Source: Patescibacteria group bacterium (GTDB lineage Bacteria; Patescibacteriota; Microgenomatia; UBA1400; PJMF01). Taken from it: 64,000 nucleotides of DNA. The DNA lies in contig BOKR01000001.1 of the NCBI GenBank assembly GCA_016861085.1, forward strand, positions 761,696 through 825,695, given 5' to 3'. The notes beneath the pieces were generated by a model that saw only the letters and a program-made list of their open reading frames with translations, was not told the origin of the DNA and made no database searches. Below are positions 2,529 through 44,587 of this stretch, piece after piece (position 1 is the stretch's first letter; each line of letters begins with the position of its first letter). A program made the translations under genes and the position numbers.

Positions 2529-3779
2529 TTAGAAACGGTATAACATTATGAGGGTCTGCAATAACATATTACTGGAAAAAAATAAGAGCAACACCAAAAA
2601 AACTATTACGAATTGTTTTTTTTGCAATTTTTTTAACAAAAAATCAATAAAATAGGCAACTGCGATGCTCAATTGAGGCAAAACACTTACAAACATTCTT
2701 GAACCATATGGACCTCCAATAATTTCTGGTCCCCAGCTGGCTACAACGTAAAGCTGTAGTAAAAAAGCAATCAATGAAATAGTTCCTAATATGGTTACTT
2801 TTTCCTTCAATTTTCTAATCAAAAAAAGAACTGCAAATCCTAGTACTGGTGCGAAGAAAAACAAACCATTTTCTAGAGTAAATAATACTCTAATAAAATC
2901 AGGCTTAAACCAGTTGAGCTGCTCACCTCTCATAAGATACGGACTCCCTAATACACCAAAAAGAGTAACGGTAGTCAAAAACTGAATACCCATAACCACA
3001 AATGCACTCCCACTAAAAAGAATCGCCCAATTCAGCTTATGCAACAAACTTTCTTTTTGAACTATAAACAAGGTGATAAATATAGGTAAAACTACAACTA
3101 AATCTTGATTCCGTACTAACATCAGAAACCCCGCAGTTACTCCCATGGGAATCACATTTTTCCAAGTAATTCTTGAGTGTAGTACTCTTGAAATTTGGTA
3201 GAATAACAACGCTGATAATAGAAATGATATTGAATGGGAATTAACTGGATCAATAGCAGTGTAATAAAATAACTGTGTTGAACAAAATAACAATATGGTC
3301 GTAAATATTGTAACCTTTTTACTAAACCACATACTCATAGTTTTAAAAACAAACCATAGCCCCAAGACACTAAAACAGACTGCCGTAACACTTACAGAAA
3401 GCTGAGGCAACAAACCATAGCCATCTACTAAAAAAAGGGTTCCTCCAACAACAGTATTACTAGCCAAAGCCACTGTTTGTCCCAACACAAAACCGGGTAT
3501 CCAGAATAGGGCAGTGCCGGGTGAAAATTTGTTGGTAACCATTCCTGTTCTTGGAGAGATTTCTGGTGCATTGGGAAAACCTAAATTTTTATGAAAGGCC
3601 TCATTACTAAAATCAATATCCCGATCCATGACGATCGATCTTGTGTACGCATAATAATAAAGACTATCACCCCAAATAATACTTTTTACCCTAAGCAAAA
3701 CCAAGATATACAAAAACAGACTTACTATAAAAAGTAAAACAAAAAAATGCTTCTCGGAAATCAGATTCCTTCTTATCAC
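2529..3779 (-). CDS. polytopic membrane protein, GT-C-like (PMT/ArnT-type) glycosyltransferase candidate
   Basis: Eleven or more predicted TM helices. The hydrophilic loop near the N-terminus (YYYAYTRSIVMDRDIDF) resembles the GT-C DxD loop. Confidence 0.4.
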   Translation of the reverse strand: MIRRNLISEKHFFVLLFIVSLFLYILVLLRVKSIIWGDSLYYYAYTRSIVMDRDIDFSNEAFHKNLGFPNAPEISPRTGMVTNKFSPGTALFWIPGFVLGQTVALASNTVVGGTLFLVDGYGLLPQLSVSVTAVCFSVLGLWFVFKTMSMWFSKKVTIFTTILLFCSTQLFYYTAIDPVNSHSISFLLSALLFYQISRVLHSRITWKNVIPMGVTAGFLMLVRNQDLVVVLPIFITLFIVQKESLLHKLNWAILFSGSAFVVMGIQFLTTVTLFGVLGSPYLMRGEQLNWFKPDFIRVLFTLENGLFFFAPVLGFAVLFLIRKLKEKVTILGTISLIAFLLQLYVVASWGPEIIGGPYGSRMFVSVLPQLSIAVAYFIDFLLKKLQKKQFVIVFLVLLLFFSSNMLLQTLIMLYRF

Positions 3780-39459: not shown

Positions 39460-40737
39460 CTACTCTTCGTTACCTCTTAAAAGCATTGTATCGACAACCT
39501 TTTTGACTGCGCTCATATAGGTCGCGACACGCGACGTAACTTTGGTATCATTTTTTAATTGCCACATTCTATCAGTGGCTTCGTCCATCAGACCTTTGAG
39601 TCTTTCAAGAACTAATTCTTTTTCCCAATAGTAACCCTGCAAATTTTGTACCCACTCAAAGTAAGAAACCGTTACCCCACCAGCATTTGCCAGAACGTCT
39701 GGAATAACAGTAATACCTTTTTTAGCTAAAATTTCGTCAGCCTCCGGAGTGGTTGGACCATTTGCCATTTCAAGCACTAACTGCGCTTTTACTTTTCCTG
39801 CATTCTCTTTTGTCAAAACATTCTCAAGGGCCGCTGGCACTAATACGTCAACGTCTAGCTCTAATAATTCAGCATTTGTAATCTGCTTGCCTTTGTATGA
39901 GCCAACTGTTCCACCTGCTTCTTTGTGCGCTAATACTTTTTCTGGATCCAAGCCGGCAGCACTATATATTCCGCCCCTTGAGTCTGATAACGCCACAACT
40001 TTATACCCTGCCTTATTGGCAAAGTATGCAAACCAGTACCCAACATTGCCAAACCCTTGCACTGCAATCGTTGCGCCTTTTTTAAGTTTCATCTTCTTGG
40101 CTAAGTTCTCAAATACATAAAACCCACCTAAGCCAGTCGCTTCAGTTCTGCCTTTAGAGCCACCAAGTAATAATGGTTTTCCAGTAAATGTAGCGATTGG
40201 ATTTTCAACCAACGTTTTGTATCGCTTTTTGGCTGCGGTTTCATACTCATCAACCATCCAAGCCATAATTTGCCCATCAGTGTTCACGTCTGGAGCTGGA
40301 ATATCGGTCCAAGGCCCAATGTGAGGTGCAACAAATAGTGCATATGCCCTTGATAAGCGTTGTAACTCTCCCTGTGATAACTTTTTTGGGTCAACAATCA
40401 CACCACCTTTGCCACCACCATAGGGGATCCCTGTGACACTACACTTCCAGGTCATCCATGTAGAAAGTGCCATAACTTCTTCTTTGGTAACATTCTGATG
40501 AAATCGGATTCCACCTTTATAGGGACCAACCGCATTATTATGCTGTGAACGATACGCTTGGAAAGTTTTAACTTTCCCGTCATCCATTCTGATTCTCAGC
40601 TTGCCTTCTATAACTCTGTCCGGAGTCTTTAATTGATCAATTGCAGCATCAAAAGATTCTTTGTCTTCATAACTCTGCCGTAATACTGCAGCTACAGTTT
40701 CAAGTTGTGTAATTGCATTTTGATGAGGATTACTCAT
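39460..40737 (-). CDS. gdhA: NAD(P)-glutamate dehydrogenase
   Basis: Catalytic loop PYGGGKGG. Dinucleotide fold GFGNVGYW. AAGGAG Shine-Dalgarno upstream. Confidence 0.9.
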   Translation of the reverse strand: MSNPHQNAITQLETVAAVLRQSYEDKESFDAAIDQLKTPDRVIEGKLRIRMDDGKVKTFQAYRSQHNNAVGPYKGGIRFHQNVTKEEVMALSTWMTWKCSVTGIPYGGGKGGVIVDPKKLSQGELQRLSRAYALFVAPHIGPWTDIPAPDVNTDGQIMAWMVDEYETAAKKRYKTLVENPIATFTGKPLLLGGSKGRTEATGLGGFYVFENLAKKMKLKKGATIAVQGFGNVGYWFAYFANKAGYKVVALSDSRGGIYSAAGLDPEKVLAHKEAGGTVGSYKGKQITNAELLELDVDVLVPAALENVLTKENAGKVKAQLVLEMANGPTTPEADEILAKKGITVIPDVLANAGGVTVSYFEWVQNLQGYYWEKELVLERLKGLMDEATDRMWQLKNDTKVTSRVATYMSAVKKVVDTMLLRGNEE

Positions 40738-40877
40738 GTATTCTCCTTTACTTGTCTGTATGATGTAAAAATATCATACTTTTTCATACCTTTTCAAGTA
40801 CCACTTTATGTTCCAAAAATCAGGCCGCCAAATATCATGACGAGATACTAGATTTTCATTCAAACTTGTACGAACTA

Positions 40878-41942
40878 TTACTCTTGCGTTTCAAGCCACC
40901 GCTCGGCATCTAGCGCAGCGCTACATCCTTGTCCTGCAGCCGTAATTGCCTGTTTGTAGCGCACATCAACTCCGTCACCAGCTGCAAACACTCCTTCAAC
41001 CGAGGTCATGGTTGGGAATGATACTAAGCCATCCTCTGAAAGAGCTTTACCTGCCAATTCCACACCTTGAATGGTGCCACTTTGTCTGGTTACCACATAC
41101 CCTTTAGTATCCATCTCAACTTGATTAGTGAAGATAAGATTCATAGGTCTGTGGCCAATCGCCATAAAAACTCCCTGTGCATCATATTCTTTTTTCTCAC
41201 CATTCTCGATAACTGAAACTTTTTCTACAGATTTTGTACCCATAATCTGTTCAAGCGTTGTGCTCCAATGGACCGTAATTTTTGGATTATGCAGTACGCG
41301 CTCTTGCATAATTTTGCTTGCTTTAAATGAATCGCGTCTGTGCAAAATATGTACTTCAGTAGCAAATTTTGTGAGAGCCATTGAATCTTCCATAGCAGAA
41401 TCACCACCGCCAACCACAAAGACTTTCTTGTCTTTGAAAAATGCGGCATCACACACAGCACAAGCACTCACGCCTCTTGACCAAAATTCTTGTTCACCAG
41501 GAATTCCAAGGGTAATTGGAGATGCGCCTGTAGCAATAATAACTGCTTTGGCCATGAGTGCAGGCTCAGATTGCTTCACTTTTTGTGTAAAATCTGCAAT
41601 TTCTTCAGGCTTAAGTTTGCCAAATTGTTGTGGATCAAATCCTTCTGGGAAGTTTGTCCAAACCTTAAAAGGACGTTCACTGAAATCAACCGCAGTTATA
41701 TACTCATCTTTGATCACTGTGCCAAACTTTTCTGCTTGGGCACGCATGCCGATCATAAGATCTGGCCCCATGATACCGTTTGGAAAACCAGCAAAATTTT
41801 CAACGTCTGTAGTATTCATGAGTTGCCCACCACTTGCAAAACCACCGTACAAAACGGGGGCTAGTTTTGCTCTCGAATTGTAAATTGCCGCAGAATACCC
41901 CGCCGGACCAGAACCAATAATGACTACAGTTGCAGTTTCCAT
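40878..41942 (-). CDS. trxB: thioredoxin-disulfide reductase
   Basis: Two FAD/NAD Rossmann motifs (IIGSGPAGYSAA, VVGGGDSAME). Redox-active CAVCDA. Confidence 0.9.
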   Translation of the reverse strand: METATVVIIGSGPAGYSAAIYNSRAKLAPVLYGGFASGGQLMNTTDVENFAGFPNGIMGPDLMIGMRAQAEKFGTVIKDEYITAVDFSERPFKVWTNFPEGFDPQQFGKLKPEEIADFTQKVKQSEPALMAKAVIIATGASPITLGIPGEQEFWSRGVSACAVCDAAFFKDKKVFVVGGGDSAMEDSMALTKFATEVHILHRRDSFKASKIMQERVLHNPKITVHWSTTLEQIMGTKSVEKVSVIENGEKKEYDAQGVFMAIGHRPMNLIFTNQVEMDTKGYVVTRQSGTIQGVELAGKALSEDGLVSFPTMTSVEGVFAAGDGVDVRYKQAITAAGQGCSAALDAERWLETQE

Positions 41943-41950
41943 ATATTCCT

Positions 41951-42301
41951 TTATTCTTCCATTGCTCCTTCAAGCATACTTACATATCCTTGTTTGCCTG
42001 CAAAACCAATTTTTCTATCAACTTCTTCACCGTTCACAAAGACTATAACTGTTGGAATTGACATCACTCCGTATGTTGCTGCCAATGAGTTTTCTGCGTC
42101 AACGTCAACTTTTGCGATCACTGCTTTGTCAGCATATTCACCAGCTAATTCCTCGATCACAGGAGCAGCCATCTTGCATGGACCACACCATTCTGCAAAA
42201 AAATCAACTAAAACTGGTTTTTGTCCGGCTGCTTTGAGCGTTTGATCAAAATCAGCTTGGGATAGGTGCAGTGCACCTGGTTTTTGAGCATTGTCTGCCA
42301 T
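41951..42301 (-). CDS. trxA: thioredoxin
   Basis: WCGPCK active site. Start taken at MADNAQ. Confidence 0.85.
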   Translation of the reverse strand: MADNAQKPGALHLSQADFDQTLKAAGQKPVLVDFFAEWCGPCKMAAPVIEELAGEYADKAVIAKVDVDAENSLAATYGVMSIPTVIVFVNGEEVDRKIGFAGKQGYVSMLEGAMEE

Positions 42302-42389
42302 ATATTCTCCTTTTATATTTCCTATTATTACTACTTTTAATTCGCAAATCAAACCAAATGTGTTTTTTTAGGTTTACTAGCTTTCCGTT

Positions 42390-42638
42390 TTAATATCGAA
42401 AAATTTCCTTCAAAATTTCATTCAGTTCATCTGCCTTGCGCTCTTTTGTACATCGAGTTGCTTCACTTGAGAGTAGAGATTTTGCTACGCTGCCCAGTGA
42501 ACTGCGTGCAGCAATTACCTGGCGAACAATATCCACACAAGTTCGCTCATCTTCATACATACTAATGATTCCGTCAATTTGACCGCGAATCCGTTTTAGT
42601 TGGGTTAGGACTGTATCTTTTTTTTCATCATTTTGCAT
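42390..42638 (-). CDS. CsoR/RcnR/CstR-family (DUF156) metal/thiol-sensing transcriptional repressor, 2-Cys type
   Basis: 82 aa, LKRIRGQIDGIISMYEDERTCVDIVRQV...ATRCTKE. Cys34 and Cys63 are spaced 29 residues apart as in CsoR C36/C65. The CsoR His position is Glu, which is CstR-like. Confidence 0.7.
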   Translation of the reverse strand: MQNDEKKDTVLTQLKRIRGQIDGIISMYEDERTCVDIVRQVIAARSSLGSVAKSLLSSEATRCTKERKADELNEILKEIFRY

Positions 42639-42692
42639 ATTGGTTTTTTGTATCAGCGGGATTATATTTTGAGTGGTGTTGATTCCCGCGTT

Positions 42693-42713
42693 CTGTGTTT
42701 TAATATACCCCCA
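42693..42713. promoter_or_regulatory. perfect 10-bp-arm palindrome ATATACCCCC-A-GGGGGTATAT, candidate CsoR-family operator
   Basis: Lies about 55 nt upstream of the repressor start codon. The TACCC...GGGTA architecture is that of known CsoR/RicR operators. Confidence 0.5.
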
Positions 42714-42739
42714 GGGGGTATATTTGTAAAGGGGGAAAT

Positions 42740-44587
42740 TTAGCCAAGTTTCTCTTTTGCATTCAAATCTGCAAGTGCTCTGAGCAACTCATCGTGCTCT
42801 GCTTGTTCTGCTTGGGTGAGATGTTGTTTTTCATCTAAGACTGAGATTGCATCAATCAATGTTTTTTTCTCATCTACAATTGTAAGTTTTTTGAGTTTTT
42901 TGATGCTCCCAAGCCATTCAGTTTGTAAGTCAATCTCTTCTATACCGGAAATAAATTCTTGGTTGGCATGTATTTCAAATAGAGTTTCTTGAATATCAGC
43001 TGGAAGTGACGCAGCAAACTTTTTAAGCTCAAATACACCTTGATGCTCGTCTAGAGCTCTCAGAATTTGTTTTAATCCAGGAGTTACAAACACAATCTCA
43101 TTGCTATGCAAACTACGCACGTGTTCAAAAATTTGCGTATTTTCAGTTTGAAACAACAAAAACATAACGTACTTTTCTAGCCGTTCTCTAGCTGTTTCTT
43201 TCTGCGGAGTTTGAGCAGTTTTTGGCTCGGTTGCGGTCGTATTTGTCGTACTCATTTTAGAACTTGCGTTAACCCCACCAATCCTTTTTTTATTCTTAAA
43301 TTGTGCAATATCCGCCTTGACACTCTCTAGTTTTACACCCAATTTTTCTGCAATTTCGCGGCTATAATGTTCAAGTTCAACTGCATGTTCAATTTCTGAT
43401 AGCACAGGCAGCAATTCGCGCATTATTGCTTTCTTGCCCTCTGGTGTTTCATGGTTATGTTGTTGAAACGCCACTTTAATCAAAAATTCATGTGCAGTGA
43501 CTGATTGTTTTACAGCCTCACGCCATAGTTTTGGATCTGTTTTGATTAATTCATCAGGGTCTTTACCACCTGGAATAATAATGACTCGCAATTCAAGTTC
43601 GGTTAATTTGAGCGCATCAATAGCTTTTTTTGTAGCCGCCACACCTGCACTATCAGTGTCAAGCGAAAGTAACACTTTTGTAACCGTTCTTTCTAACAGT
43701 TTAGCGTGATCTTGCGTCAGGGCTGAACCTTTAATAGCCACAATCGAATTCATGTGGGCTTGCGTTGAAGAAACCACATCAAATTCACCCTCAACAACGA
43801 CAACAAATCCTGCCTTGCGAATTTCTTGGTAAAGTTCAGAAAACCCAAAGAGCATTTTGCTTTTGTGATACAACATTGTTTCTGGAGAGTTAATGTACTT
43901 AGCATCTTTTTCATCTCCAAGAATTTTTCGACCAGAAAATCCGACCACTCTACCTCTGTGATCTTTGAGAGGAAAAATGATTCGGCCGCGAAACCGGTCA
44001 TAGTATTTACCGTTTCTGCCTTGAATGATCAAACCTGCTTGTTCTAACAACAGCAAACTGTATTTTTTCTTCTTATGTAAAAAGGTAAGCAAGCCTTCCC
44101 ATTGGTCAAGAGCATAGCCCATTTGGAACAAGTTGATAGATTCTTTAGTAACTCTTCGCTCTTTGAGATATTCACGGGCTACTTCTCCTGCTTTATGTTC
44201 TGTCAATAAATAGTGATAGTACTGCTTTGCTAGGCTTAACACCTCTAGAATCTGCTCACGAACGGTATCGTCTTTTGATTTTGTGAATTTTTGCAGTGTA
44301 ATTCCAGCCCGATTTGCAAGTTCTTCTAAAGCCTCGCTAAAGCTCATGCCCTCATATTTTTCTAAAAAAGTAATAACATCACCTGACTCACCACAACCAA
44401 AACATTTGTAACGCTGGAGTGCGTCGTCGACAAAAAAAGAAGGACTTCTCTCTGAATGAAATGGACAATTGGCTTTAAAATATTTTCCTGATCGCTGCAA
44501 ACTCACCTTGGCACCGATGACAGAAACAATATCAGTTGCTTCCTTGACCTCTTGTACTTGCGACATAATTACCCTAATTTTAACCAA
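42740..44587 (-). CDS. dnaG: DNA primase
   Basis: Zinc ribbon CPFHSERSPSF...CFGCGESGD. TOPRIM EGEFD...DTD. C-terminal helical domain. Confidence 0.9.
   Translation of the reverse strand: MVKIRVIMSQVQEVKEATDIVSVIGAKVSLQRSGKYFKANCPFHSERSPSFFVDDALQRYKCFGCGESGDVITFLEKYEGMSFSEALEELANRAGITLQKFTKSKDDTVREQILEVLSLAKQYYHYLLTEHKAGEVAREYLKERRVTKESINLFQMGYALDQWEGLLTFLHKKKKYSLLLLEQAGLIIQGRNGKYYDRFRGRIIFPLKDHRGRVVGFSGRKILGDEKDAKYINSPETMLYHKSKMLFGFSELYQEIRKAGFVVVVEGEFDVVSSTQAHMNSIVAIKGSALTQDHAKLLERTVTKVLLSLDTDSAGVAATKKAIDALKLTELELRVIIIPGGKDPDELIKTDPKLWREAVKQSVTAHEFLIKVAFQQHNHETPEGKKAIMRELLPVLSEIEHAVELEHYSREIAEKLGVKLESVKADIAQFKNKKRIGGVNASSKMSTTNTTATEPKTAQTPQKETARERLEKYVMFLLFQTENTQIFEHVRSLHSNEIVFVTPGLKQILRALDEHQGVFELKKFAASLPADIQETLFEIHANQEFISGIEEIDLQTEWLGSIKKLKKLTIVDEKKTLIDAISVLDEKQHLTQAEQAEHDELLRALADLNAKEKLG

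Follow-up and report, generated by a model that had tools for sequence, protein, structure and literature searches.

Regulators of the CsoR/RcnR family are otherwise known as sensors of metals, formaldehyde and persulfide. Here we examine a member of this family encoded ahead of the genes for thioredoxin (trxA) and thioredoxin reductase (trxB) in a 64,000-nucleotide stretch (the window) of contig BOKR01000001.1, positions 761,696 to 825,695, from a Patescibacteria group bacterium. The described members are told apart by the residues at the sensing-site positions W-X-Y-Z and by the genes that they adjoin. The Cu(I) sensors named CsoR (M. tuberculosis 2HH7, G. thermodenitrificans 4M1P, B. subtilis, S. 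lividans 4ADZ) have the ligand set x-C-H-C or x-C-H-H, a Tyr before the first Cys, and copA/copZ in the operon; the formaldehyde sensor FrmR has P-C-H-x, and the Ni/Co sensors RcnR and InrS have H-C-H-H or H-C-H-C with an N-terminal ligand. CstR (CsoR-like sulfurtransferase repressor), a Firmicutes protein (S. aureus, E. faecalis, S. pneumoniae/S. mitis; PDB 7MQ1-3), has the motif x-C-x-C, with a wedge Asn at Y (x-C-N-C) in clusters 4 and 10, and acts on genes for rhodaneses, CoA-persulfide reductase, persulfide dioxygenase and SQR. The 'type 1' operators of RcnR and FrmR read TACT-G6-N-AGTA. CsoR/RcnR sites in general are G/C tracts flanked by TAC/GTA that overlap the promoter of the regulated operon (PMC10318464). 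When CstR is oxidised or persulfidated, its DNA binding falls by about three orders of magnitude, an effect reversed by TCEP (PMC8643695). DNA binding by the non-metal regulator TTHA1953 of Thermus thermophilus is likewise lowered by a disulfide between its monomers (PMC10318464).

Thiol switches of other families exert a control similar in logic to the one proposed here, in that a cysteine sensor raises the thioredoxin system, which reduces the sensor. Examples are RsrA-SigR with trxBA in Streptomyces, Spx in Bacillus and OxyR with trxC/grxA in E. coli. The ArsR-family protein RexT controls thioredoxin genes in Nostoc (PMC8960804). All of these belong to unrelated protein families. A further difference is that here the trx operon itself would begin with the gene for its sensor. 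The main text of a similarity network of the CsoR/RcnR superfamily (Fakhoury et al. 2021) never mentions thioredoxin, and clusters 6-9 of the network are uncharacterised (PMC8643695). According to a 2024 review, no H2O2-specific sensor of the CsoR family has been characterised, which blocks a comparison of dithiol sites for persulfide and for reactive oxygen species (PMC11672702). No paper on a CsoR-family regulator of trx genes, or on such a unit in the candidate phyla radiation (CPR)/Patescibacteria, was found in a literature search whose coverage left out many subscription-journal papers. The interpretation that we favour, and hold to be rather probable from the sequence comparisons below, is that regulator, trxA and trxB form an autoregulated operon under a distinct x-C-E-C clade of the family, in which a Cys34-Cys63' thiol switch would derepress the thioredoxin system. 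Fold and operator logic are of a familiar kind, and the novelty resides in the sensing triad, in the regulon and in the host lineage.

The regulator and its sensing site

Five genes follow one another on the (-) strand of this part of the window: dnaG (44587-42740), the regulator gene (42638-42390), trxA (42301-41951), trxB (41942-40878) and gdh (40737-39460). The features of the proposed operon, from the promoter onwards, are:

42725-42730, (-) strand: -35-like hexamer TTTACA, which begins 10 nt past the dnaG stop codon (promoter scan)
42702-42724, no strand assigned: operator, a perfect palindrome AATATACCCCC-N-GGGGGTATATT with the core TACCCC-N3-GGGGTA, overlapping the -10 box (repeat search, relatives)
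42702-42707, (-) strand: -10-like hexamer TATATT, provided by the promoter-proximal palindrome arm (promoter scan, relatives)
42639-42701, (-) strand: 63-nt leader, lineage-specific, without a Shine-Dalgarno sequence ahead of the ATG
42390-42638, (-) strand: gene for a CsoR/RcnR-family repressor of 82 amino acids (aa), W-X-Y-Z = x-C34-E59-C63 (PF02583, PDB alignments, AlphaFold, Foldseek)
42302-42389, (-) strand: regulator-trxA spacer, 88 nt, with no terminator, a weak 9/12 promoter-like match (42352-42324) and a strong Shine-Dalgarno sequence, GGAG (42310-42307)
41951-42301, (-) strand: trxA, thioredoxin, 116 aa, active site WCGPC (PF00085, E 2.7e-28; TIGR01068, 116.6 bits against a cutoff of 96.8)
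40878-41942, (-) strand: trxB, low-molecular-weight thioredoxin-disulfide reductase, 354 aa, CAVC (PF07992, E 3.9e-44; TIGR01292, 343.6 bits against 343.45)

The regulator matches PF02583 (formerly DUF156) over residues 7-77, with a score of 71.2 bits (cutoff 22.8; E 9.7e-20), and a protein search found it 100% identical to a 'hypothetical protein' of Patescibacteria group bacterium BroJett025. An AlphaFold monomer model (pLDDT 82.7) predicts three helices, residues 3-29, 34-66 and 69-80, forming an all-alpha three-helix protomer in which helix 2 carries the X cysteine at its beginning and the Y and Z residues towards its end. The best matches of this model in a Foldseek search of the PDB are 4m1p, 7mq2, 4adz, 5fmn and 2hh7, all of them CsoR, CstR or InrS structures. 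The DNA ahead of the gene is also of the expected kind, with a run of at least four G or C within TAC/GTA flanks that overlaps the predicted promoter of the operon. On every feature that could be compared in sequence and model, the regulator belongs to the CsoR/RcnR superfamily. There is no second CsoR-family gene within the window.

In HMMER alignments Cys34 and Cys63 coincide with both Cu-ligand cysteines of the CsoRs of G. thermodenitrificans (4m1p) and M. tuberculosis (2hh7) and with the cysteines of S. pneumoniae CstR (7mq1). Glu59 coincides with the ligand His of the two CsoRs and with the wedge Asn (N55) of CstR. The initial annotation had described a DUF156 protein of 82 aa with Cys34 and Cys63 at CsoR-like spacing and Glu in place of the His of copper CsoRs, and the PF02583 match and these alignments bear out both statements. 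It had also read this pattern as that of a CstR-type sensor, which is right as regards the x-C-x-C motif and fails as regards the wedge Asn and the sulfur-detoxification neighbourhood, both absent here. The alignment against CstR, CsoR and FrmR that it proposed does yield a class for the sensing site, x-C-E-C, which agrees in full with none of the definitions of CstR, copper CsoR and FrmR.

The residues concerned are strongly conserved. Both cysteines are present in all of 180 close homologues retrieved by protein search. In a scan that took a single genome for each GTDB species, 46 loci of the close family were found, with 49-88% protein identity (47 loci when the window is included); among these orthologues Cys34 and Cys63 are invariant and the C-E-C triad occurs in 46/47. 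Position 33 is occupied by A, S, T, G, V and other residues and, unlike in copper CsoRs, never by Tyr (n=47). The N-terminus (MQND... in the window) varies in length and sequence across the family, and the clade alignment lacks N-terminal ligands of the RcnR or InrS type, a conserved His at any of the positions W, Y and Z, and a conserved Pro2, the residue that together with Cys35 marks the FrmR motif P-C-H-x. Against the NCBIfam models the regulator scores 36 bits for FrmR (cutoff 133; E 5e-9) and 20 bits for RcnR (cutoff 138). A profile of the clade is about equidistant from CstR (7mq1, E 2.6e-12) and copper CsoR (4m1p, E 2.5e-14). Homologues are labelled 'metal-sensitive', 'copper-sensing CsoR' and, in many cases, 'FrmR family' in databases, an annotation that these data correct.

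With CstR the regulator shares family and fold, cysteines at X and Z with an identical 29-residue spacing, the absence of His at Y, a nearly identical operator (see below) and, as we propose, repression in the reduced state. It differs from CstR in having Glu at Y in place of the wedge Asn, in its overall sequence (about 36% identity in the Foldseek alignment, no closer than copper CsoRs), in its occurrence in Patescibacteria rather than Firmicutes, and in its targets, trxA and trxB rather than sulfur-detoxification genes. Its neighbours across loci are trxA, trxB, gdh and sometimes a malic enzyme gene. Because the wedge Asn and the sulfide/persulfide detoxification neighbourhood are both missing, it is not a CstR by the features that define that group. 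Copper CsoRs are its best matches in sequence and structure, and environmental CsoRs beside copA use the same autoregulated TTGACA-N5-TACCCC-N3-GGGGTA cassette; the regulator, unlike them, lacks the ligand His and the Tyr before the first Cys and has no copA/copZ nearby, whereas the environmental CsoRs on this operator do carry YC...H...C/H among the matches listed. The sensing residues of FrmR and of RcnR/InrS are absent as well. Judged by its defining residues and neighbours, the regulator represents a distinct clade of the CsoR/RcnR family, neither CstR nor copper CsoR. TTHA1953, a non-metal family member whose DNA binding is lowered by an intermonomer disulfide, resembles what we propose for the regulator, and differs in its operator, TACNNTACNNNNGTANNGTA, which has no G/C tract, and in its regulon of sox (sulfur oxidation) genes in place of the thioredoxin system (PMC10318464).

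Putative operator and operon in the window and in related genomes

The palindrome, AATATACCCCC-A-GGGGGTATATT, measures 11+1+11 nt, and its arms (42702-42712 and 42714-42724) are 100% complementary. Its 15-nt core occurs once in the window at 0 mismatches, about 0.36 matches being expected even when 3 mismatches are allowed. TTTACA-17-TATATT scores 10/12 and is the best sigma-70-like promoter match between 40400 and 43000. The palindrome fills the spacer of this promoter and contributes the -10 box with its proximal arm, a classic place for repression by occlusion. The operator of the window, AAATATACCCCCTGGGGGTATATTAAA, agrees at 23/27 positions with the S. mitis cst operator, AAATATACCCTTATGGGGTATATTAAA, which has been used in CstR binding assays (PMC8643695).

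The same arrangement is found throughout the close family. An operator of the form A-TACCCC-N3-GGGGTA-T precedes the regulator gene in 47/47 loci, without a mismatch in 39 and with a single one in 8; the motif is absent from the rest of the 354 kb that these loci comprise. It lies in fixed register, 4-5 nt behind a TTGACA-like -35 box (TTGACA-N4/5-TACCCC-N3-GGGGTA), and its last two bases open a TAnnnT -10 box in the relatives. The -10 pattern there is TA-T---T, with T in 47/47, A in 47/47, T in 46/47 and the final T in 41/47. Even where the proteins share only 45-60% identity, the arms keep their sequence and show no compensatory changes, and in four loci a GGGAGTA arm is left unpaired; this pattern of conservation points to a protein-binding site rather than an RNA hairpin.

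In 29/44 relatives (e.g. L033, L038, L040, L044) only 5-9 nt separate the -10 hexamer from the start codon of the regulator, and a leaderless mRNA is predicted for it. The 63-nt leader of the window counts as an insertion specific to its lineage, since start codons in the relatives mostly lie so close to the -10 box. The distance from -10 box to start codon varies widely among the closest relatives of the window (6, 23 and 145 nt). The leader of the window contains a possible 6-bp stem, GCGGGA...TCCCGC (42689-42684 paired to 42661-42656), as well as, at 42666-42661, a perfect TATAAT without a -35 partner. A sequence in it, AATATAATCCC, resembles one operator arm and is 82% complementary to the arm 42702-42712; the segment 42656-42689 may go back to a partial duplication of the promoter-operator that has since decayed. 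No terminator was found after dnaG, and an Rfam scan of 40400-43000 gave no RNA family near its threshold.

The regulator, trxA and trxB stand in this order on one strand in 45/46 loci; in the exception the sequence ends 89 nt past the regulator gene. In the window the trxA-trxB gap is 8 nt. The regulator-trxA gap of the 46 relatives has a median of 51 nt and a minimum of 8 nt, with 8-24 nt in nine loci, and no internal promoter is conserved in this spacer among them, while a strong Shine-Dalgarno sequence precedes every trxA. The short gaps of some relatives and the lack of a conserved internal promoter argue for co-transcription, which we regard as predicted for the window too. Scattered promoter-like matches of 9-10/12 do occur in the AT-rich spacers of 11/46 loci; they have no conserved -35 box, and an internal promoter was rejected as a general feature.

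Much of what had been proposed for this region on first inspection can be retained. The perfect palindrome is there, slightly longer than described, and ends 63 nt, not about 55 nt, before the ATG; the range first drawn around the unit ran to 42713, which is the centre of the palindrome and cuts it in half. Its assignment to the TACCC...GGGTA class of CsoR operators is strengthened by the position inside a promoter in 47/47 related loci and by the match to the S. mitis CstR operator. The presence of trxA and trxB behind the repressor on the same strand recurs in the close family and in the metagenomic and distant loci described below, and the overall architecture of a 2-Cys CsoR-family repressor, a CsoR-class operator and trxA-trxB now has independent comparative evidence. 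The idea that the intergenic gaps are too short for promoters does not hold, since the 88-nt regulator-trxA gap of the window has room for a promoter and contains one weak match.

The operator cassette is not confined to C-E-C regulators. An exact-pattern scan of metagenomes with TTGACA-N5-TACCCC-N3-GGGGTA returned at least 120 loci, and among the matches listed, to which the counts in this paragraph refer, a CsoR-family gene adjoins the cassette in 88/120. Here the X-Y-Z motifs split cleanly by neighbour genes. The C-H-C and C-H-H proteins, all with a Tyr-Cys pair, accompany CopA-type ATPases and HMA proteins, and CopA/HMA genes are present in 29/64 His-type loci (two exceptional loci, L108 and L109, excluded). 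The C-E-C proteins are followed by trxA in 10/10 loci and by trxB in 9/10, that is, wherever the contig reaches, and no CopA, CopZ or HMA gene lies beside them. Because the cassette precedes several triad types, the palindrome alone marks only binding by some CsoR-family protein; it is the C-E-C site that tracks the trx genes. A third class, with a C-Y-C triad on the same cassette (L052, L124, L126, L151, L067 and 7 others), is divergent from genes for FlpD/MvhD, a formate-dehydrogenase-like molybdopterin oxidoreductase and HdrA-like proteins in 9/12 loci; the pairing of this triad with an FlpD/Fdh/Hdr regulon appears to be uncharacterised so far. On L108 and L109 (GC 62-69%, not Patescibacteria) a CC-H-C protein is divergent from trxA-trxB, with the TTGACA-N5-TACCCC-N3-GGGGTA cassette directly upstream of trxA, apparently a second, independent link of the CsoR family to the thioredoxin system.

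The C-E-C clade itself reaches further. A profile search of 1.84 billion cluster representatives revealed a graded clade, to which 41 of the best 150 matches and nearly all of the top 35 belong. Two distant C-E-C subfamilies, 35-45% identical and annotated as Microgenomates, Beckwithbacteria and Dojkabacteria, were sampled in 8 contexts. The regulator lies immediately upstream of trxA in 8/8 of these, with trxB next in 6/8, and the genes upstream (LGT, peptidase S51, a radical-SAM protein, the Trp repressor) are unrelated to dnaG. The operator has changed as well, to TATACT-N7-AGTATA with a G or C tract, e.g. TATACTAGGGGGGAGTATA (L167-L174, at about 2950-3000). These sites resemble the type 1 operators of RcnR and FrmR, from which the TACCCC/GGGGTA operator of the window differs, and the proteins have neither RcnR (H-C-H-H) nor FrmR (P-C-H-x) residues. 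In the TATACT-N7-AGTATA sites the left arm, not the right, is the -10 box, 17 nt after TTGACA, a half-site shift relative to the type found in the window. The link between regulator and trx genes thus outlasts a change of both flanking genes and operator type, which argues for functional coupling and not mere inherited synteny. Variant cysteines are seen within the wider C-E-C clade (P0410, P0149, P0155, P0158, P0171 and P0187; P0135, P0136 and P0138). In some members a Cys stands two positions behind the Glu (QESCQL), in part of them together with the second Cys, and others are without the first Cys. P0410 (Beckwithbacteria) still precedes trxA-trxB-gdh (L174).

Proposed switch and competing explanations

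We infer the following course of events. The thiol-reduced regulator, by homology a dimer-of-dimers tetramer, would bind the G/C-tract palindrome between the -35 and -10 boxes. As the palindrome spans the -35/-10 spacer and the first bases of the -10 box, the bound protein would exclude RNA polymerase. Oxidation or sulfuration of the intersubunit Cys34-Cys63' pair, giving a disulfide or polysulfide bridge, would lower the affinity for DNA; analogy with CstR and TTHA1953, in which oxidation of the cysteine pair impairs DNA binding, supports this step. The promoter would then fire, with more thioredoxin, thioredoxin reductase and repressor being made, and the induced NADPH-TrxB-TrxA system would restore thiol balance and probably re-reduce the repressor, closing a homeostatic loop. 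For the inducer, a broad thiol-oxidation signal is favoured because the only conserved targets constitute a general disulfide-reducing system, and persulfide specificity is the main rival. The conserved unit is probably a thiol-redox control circuit of many ultra-small Patescibacteria.

Several points weigh against this interpretation. The weak promoter-like match in the 88-nt spacer makes some independent transcription of the trx genes possible, read-through from the terminator-less dnaG could enter the operon, and the TATAAT in the leader, downstream of the operator, might be an unregulated start; the leader, moreover, has no Shine-Dalgarno sequence. The structure model is of a monomer, whereas the proposed Cys34-Cys63' pair would be intersubunit, and the conserved Glu could act as a metal ligand. 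Part of the gene order in the close family, in which dnaG and gdh are conserved neighbours too, could be inherited synteny.

The main rival, which we consider doubtful, makes the regulator a functional CstR, a sensor specific for persulfide (reactive sulfur species), with the thioredoxin system acting as a persulfide/polysulfide reductase. The x-C-x-C motif of CstRs (PMC8643695) is indeed present, the operator matches that of the S. mitis cst operon as described above, and in S. aureus protein persulfides are reduced by thioredoxin-like proteins (PMC6196236). The motif alone, however, confers no persulfide specificity, since CstR itself also reacts fast with H2O2 in vitro (PMC11672702). Position Y is Glu and not the wedge Asn of the cluster 4/10 CstRs, the family profile is no nearer to CstR than to copper CsoR, and no gene for a rhodanese, persulfide dioxygenase, CoA-persulfide reductase, SQR or TauE is adjacent in about 64 loci.

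That the regulator senses a metal, either Cu(I) or a harder metal with Glu59 as ligand, and induces trx genes within a metal-stress response, seems improbable. It would accord with the use of the same promoter-operator cassette by C-H-C and C-H-H CsoRs beside copA, with the pairing of a CC-H-C CsoR and trxA-trxB on the GC-rich contigs L108 and L109, and with the capacity of two cysteines to bind Cu(I), as in CstR (PMC8643695). Yet CstR stays on its DNA when it binds Cu(I) (PMC8643695), and the allosterically essential His at Y is replaced by Glu in 46/47 orthologues, in none of which the preceding Tyr is present. CopA, CopZ and HMA genes, common beside His types, adjoin no C-E-C locus among the matches listed, and the variable N-terminus provides no ligands of the RcnR/InrS kind. 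The absence of the copper-sensor His and Tyr, the lack of metal-efflux genes nearby and the variable N-terminus together make a metal an unlikely inducer.

Still less probable is an electrophile or aldehyde sensor like FrmR, with one cysteine alkylated or cross-linked and thioredoxin repairing thiol damage. The proteins do share a family, as the NCBIfam FrmR match (E 5e-9, far below cutoff) and the 'FrmR family' labels of many homologues reflect; but FrmR requires Pro2 and Cys35, the clade conserves two cysteines and not one, and no frmA-like or frmB-like genes are adjacent. FrmR-like chemistry is unlikely chiefly because there is no conserved Pro2. We give hardly any credence to the remaining explanation, by which the palindrome serves dnaG alone, as a 3' hairpin or terminator, the regulator has its target at another place, and trxA-trxB are read from a promoter of their own: the palindrome does begin 15 nt past the dnaG stop codon, can fold as RNA into a 10-bp hairpin (z-score -2.9) and is accompanied by the weak promoter-like match in the 88-nt gap, but no U-tract follows the hairpin, the arms are invariant without compensatory changes and their pairing is broken in four loci, the motif keeps its register to TTGACA, supplies the -10 box and precedes CsoR-family genes whatever gene stands upstream, and nine loci have regulator-trxA gaps of 8-24 nt with no conserved internal promoter.

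Returning to the thiol switch, a wider proposal can be put forward tentatively, at somewhat less than even confidence: that the x-C-E-C clade is the first CsoR-family sensor of general thiol oxidation (peroxide/disulfide stress) and, as a self-contained homeostat, the main and perhaps sole regulator dedicated to redox stress in a large share of the Patescibacteria (Microgenomates, Beckwithbacteria, Dojkabacteria). If so, the operon of this homeostat would open with the gene for the sensor, usually on a leaderless mRNA, and the genes behind it would provide the thioredoxin system by which the sensor is reduced. The NAD(P)H-generating gdh and malic enzyme that follow in many genomes could fuel this system, and the invariant Glu beside the reactive cysteines would tune oxidant reactivity at a position where CsoR has His and CstR Asn. 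The clade offers a natural third state of the site (Cys-Glu-Cys next to Cys-His-Cys and Cys-Asn-Cys) on an almost identical operator, and for this reason swaps at position 59 (E59H, E59N) would be directly informative. Patescibacteria are uncultured and genome-reduced, with very few predicted regulators and a poorly understood oxygen response; the promoter-operator-regulator-trx unit provides a concrete, testable regulon and a marker for metatranscriptomics of redox stress.

Downstream genes and minor observations

Two further features lie beyond trxB:

40825-40843, (-) strand: weak terminator-like hairpin after trxB (6 bp, 3 of them G-C, then a T-rich tail), the probable end of the operon
39460-40737, (-) strand: gdh (glutamate dehydrogenase), a conserved neighbour on the downstream side and perhaps an accessory part of the module

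In the window gdh begins 140 nt past trxB and has promoter-like sites of its own. In the close family it comes directly after trxB in 30/38 loci where this part is seen, with a gap of at most 60 nt in 16. A gene for a malic enzyme of about 430 aa (PF00390 and PF03949) stands between trxB and gdh in 8 loci (L004, 5607-6911; L026, 5622-6929; also L005, L013, L014, L021, L029 and L032). Both enzymes are possible makers of NAD(P)H, and the cluster may couple the thioredoxin system to the supply of reductant.

TrxB of the window has two insertions (residues ~96-126 and ~296-318) relative to shorter orthologues in L027 and L042; because of them it matches TIGR01292 as two stretches and barely reaches the cutoff. 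An apparent trxA-trxB fusion in L014 proved to be an artefact of a masked N run.

The pentamer AAGTA is enriched about 6-fold in the regulator-trxA spacer (23/46 loci, usually 30-50 nt before the trxA ATG), and a small hairpin that covaries (UGGGU...ACCCA or UGGGC...GCCCA) comes after it in L004, L005, L006 and L009. Neither its flanks nor its distance are consistent, and it was set aside; intergenic base composition may explain the enrichment or part of it. Public records give the title 'uncultured Pseudomonadales bacterium' to many metagenome-assembled genomes with this typical Patescibacteria locus (L001-L003, L007, L008, L011 and others) and the title 'Vitreimonas sp.' to P0055; both look like taxonomic mislabels.

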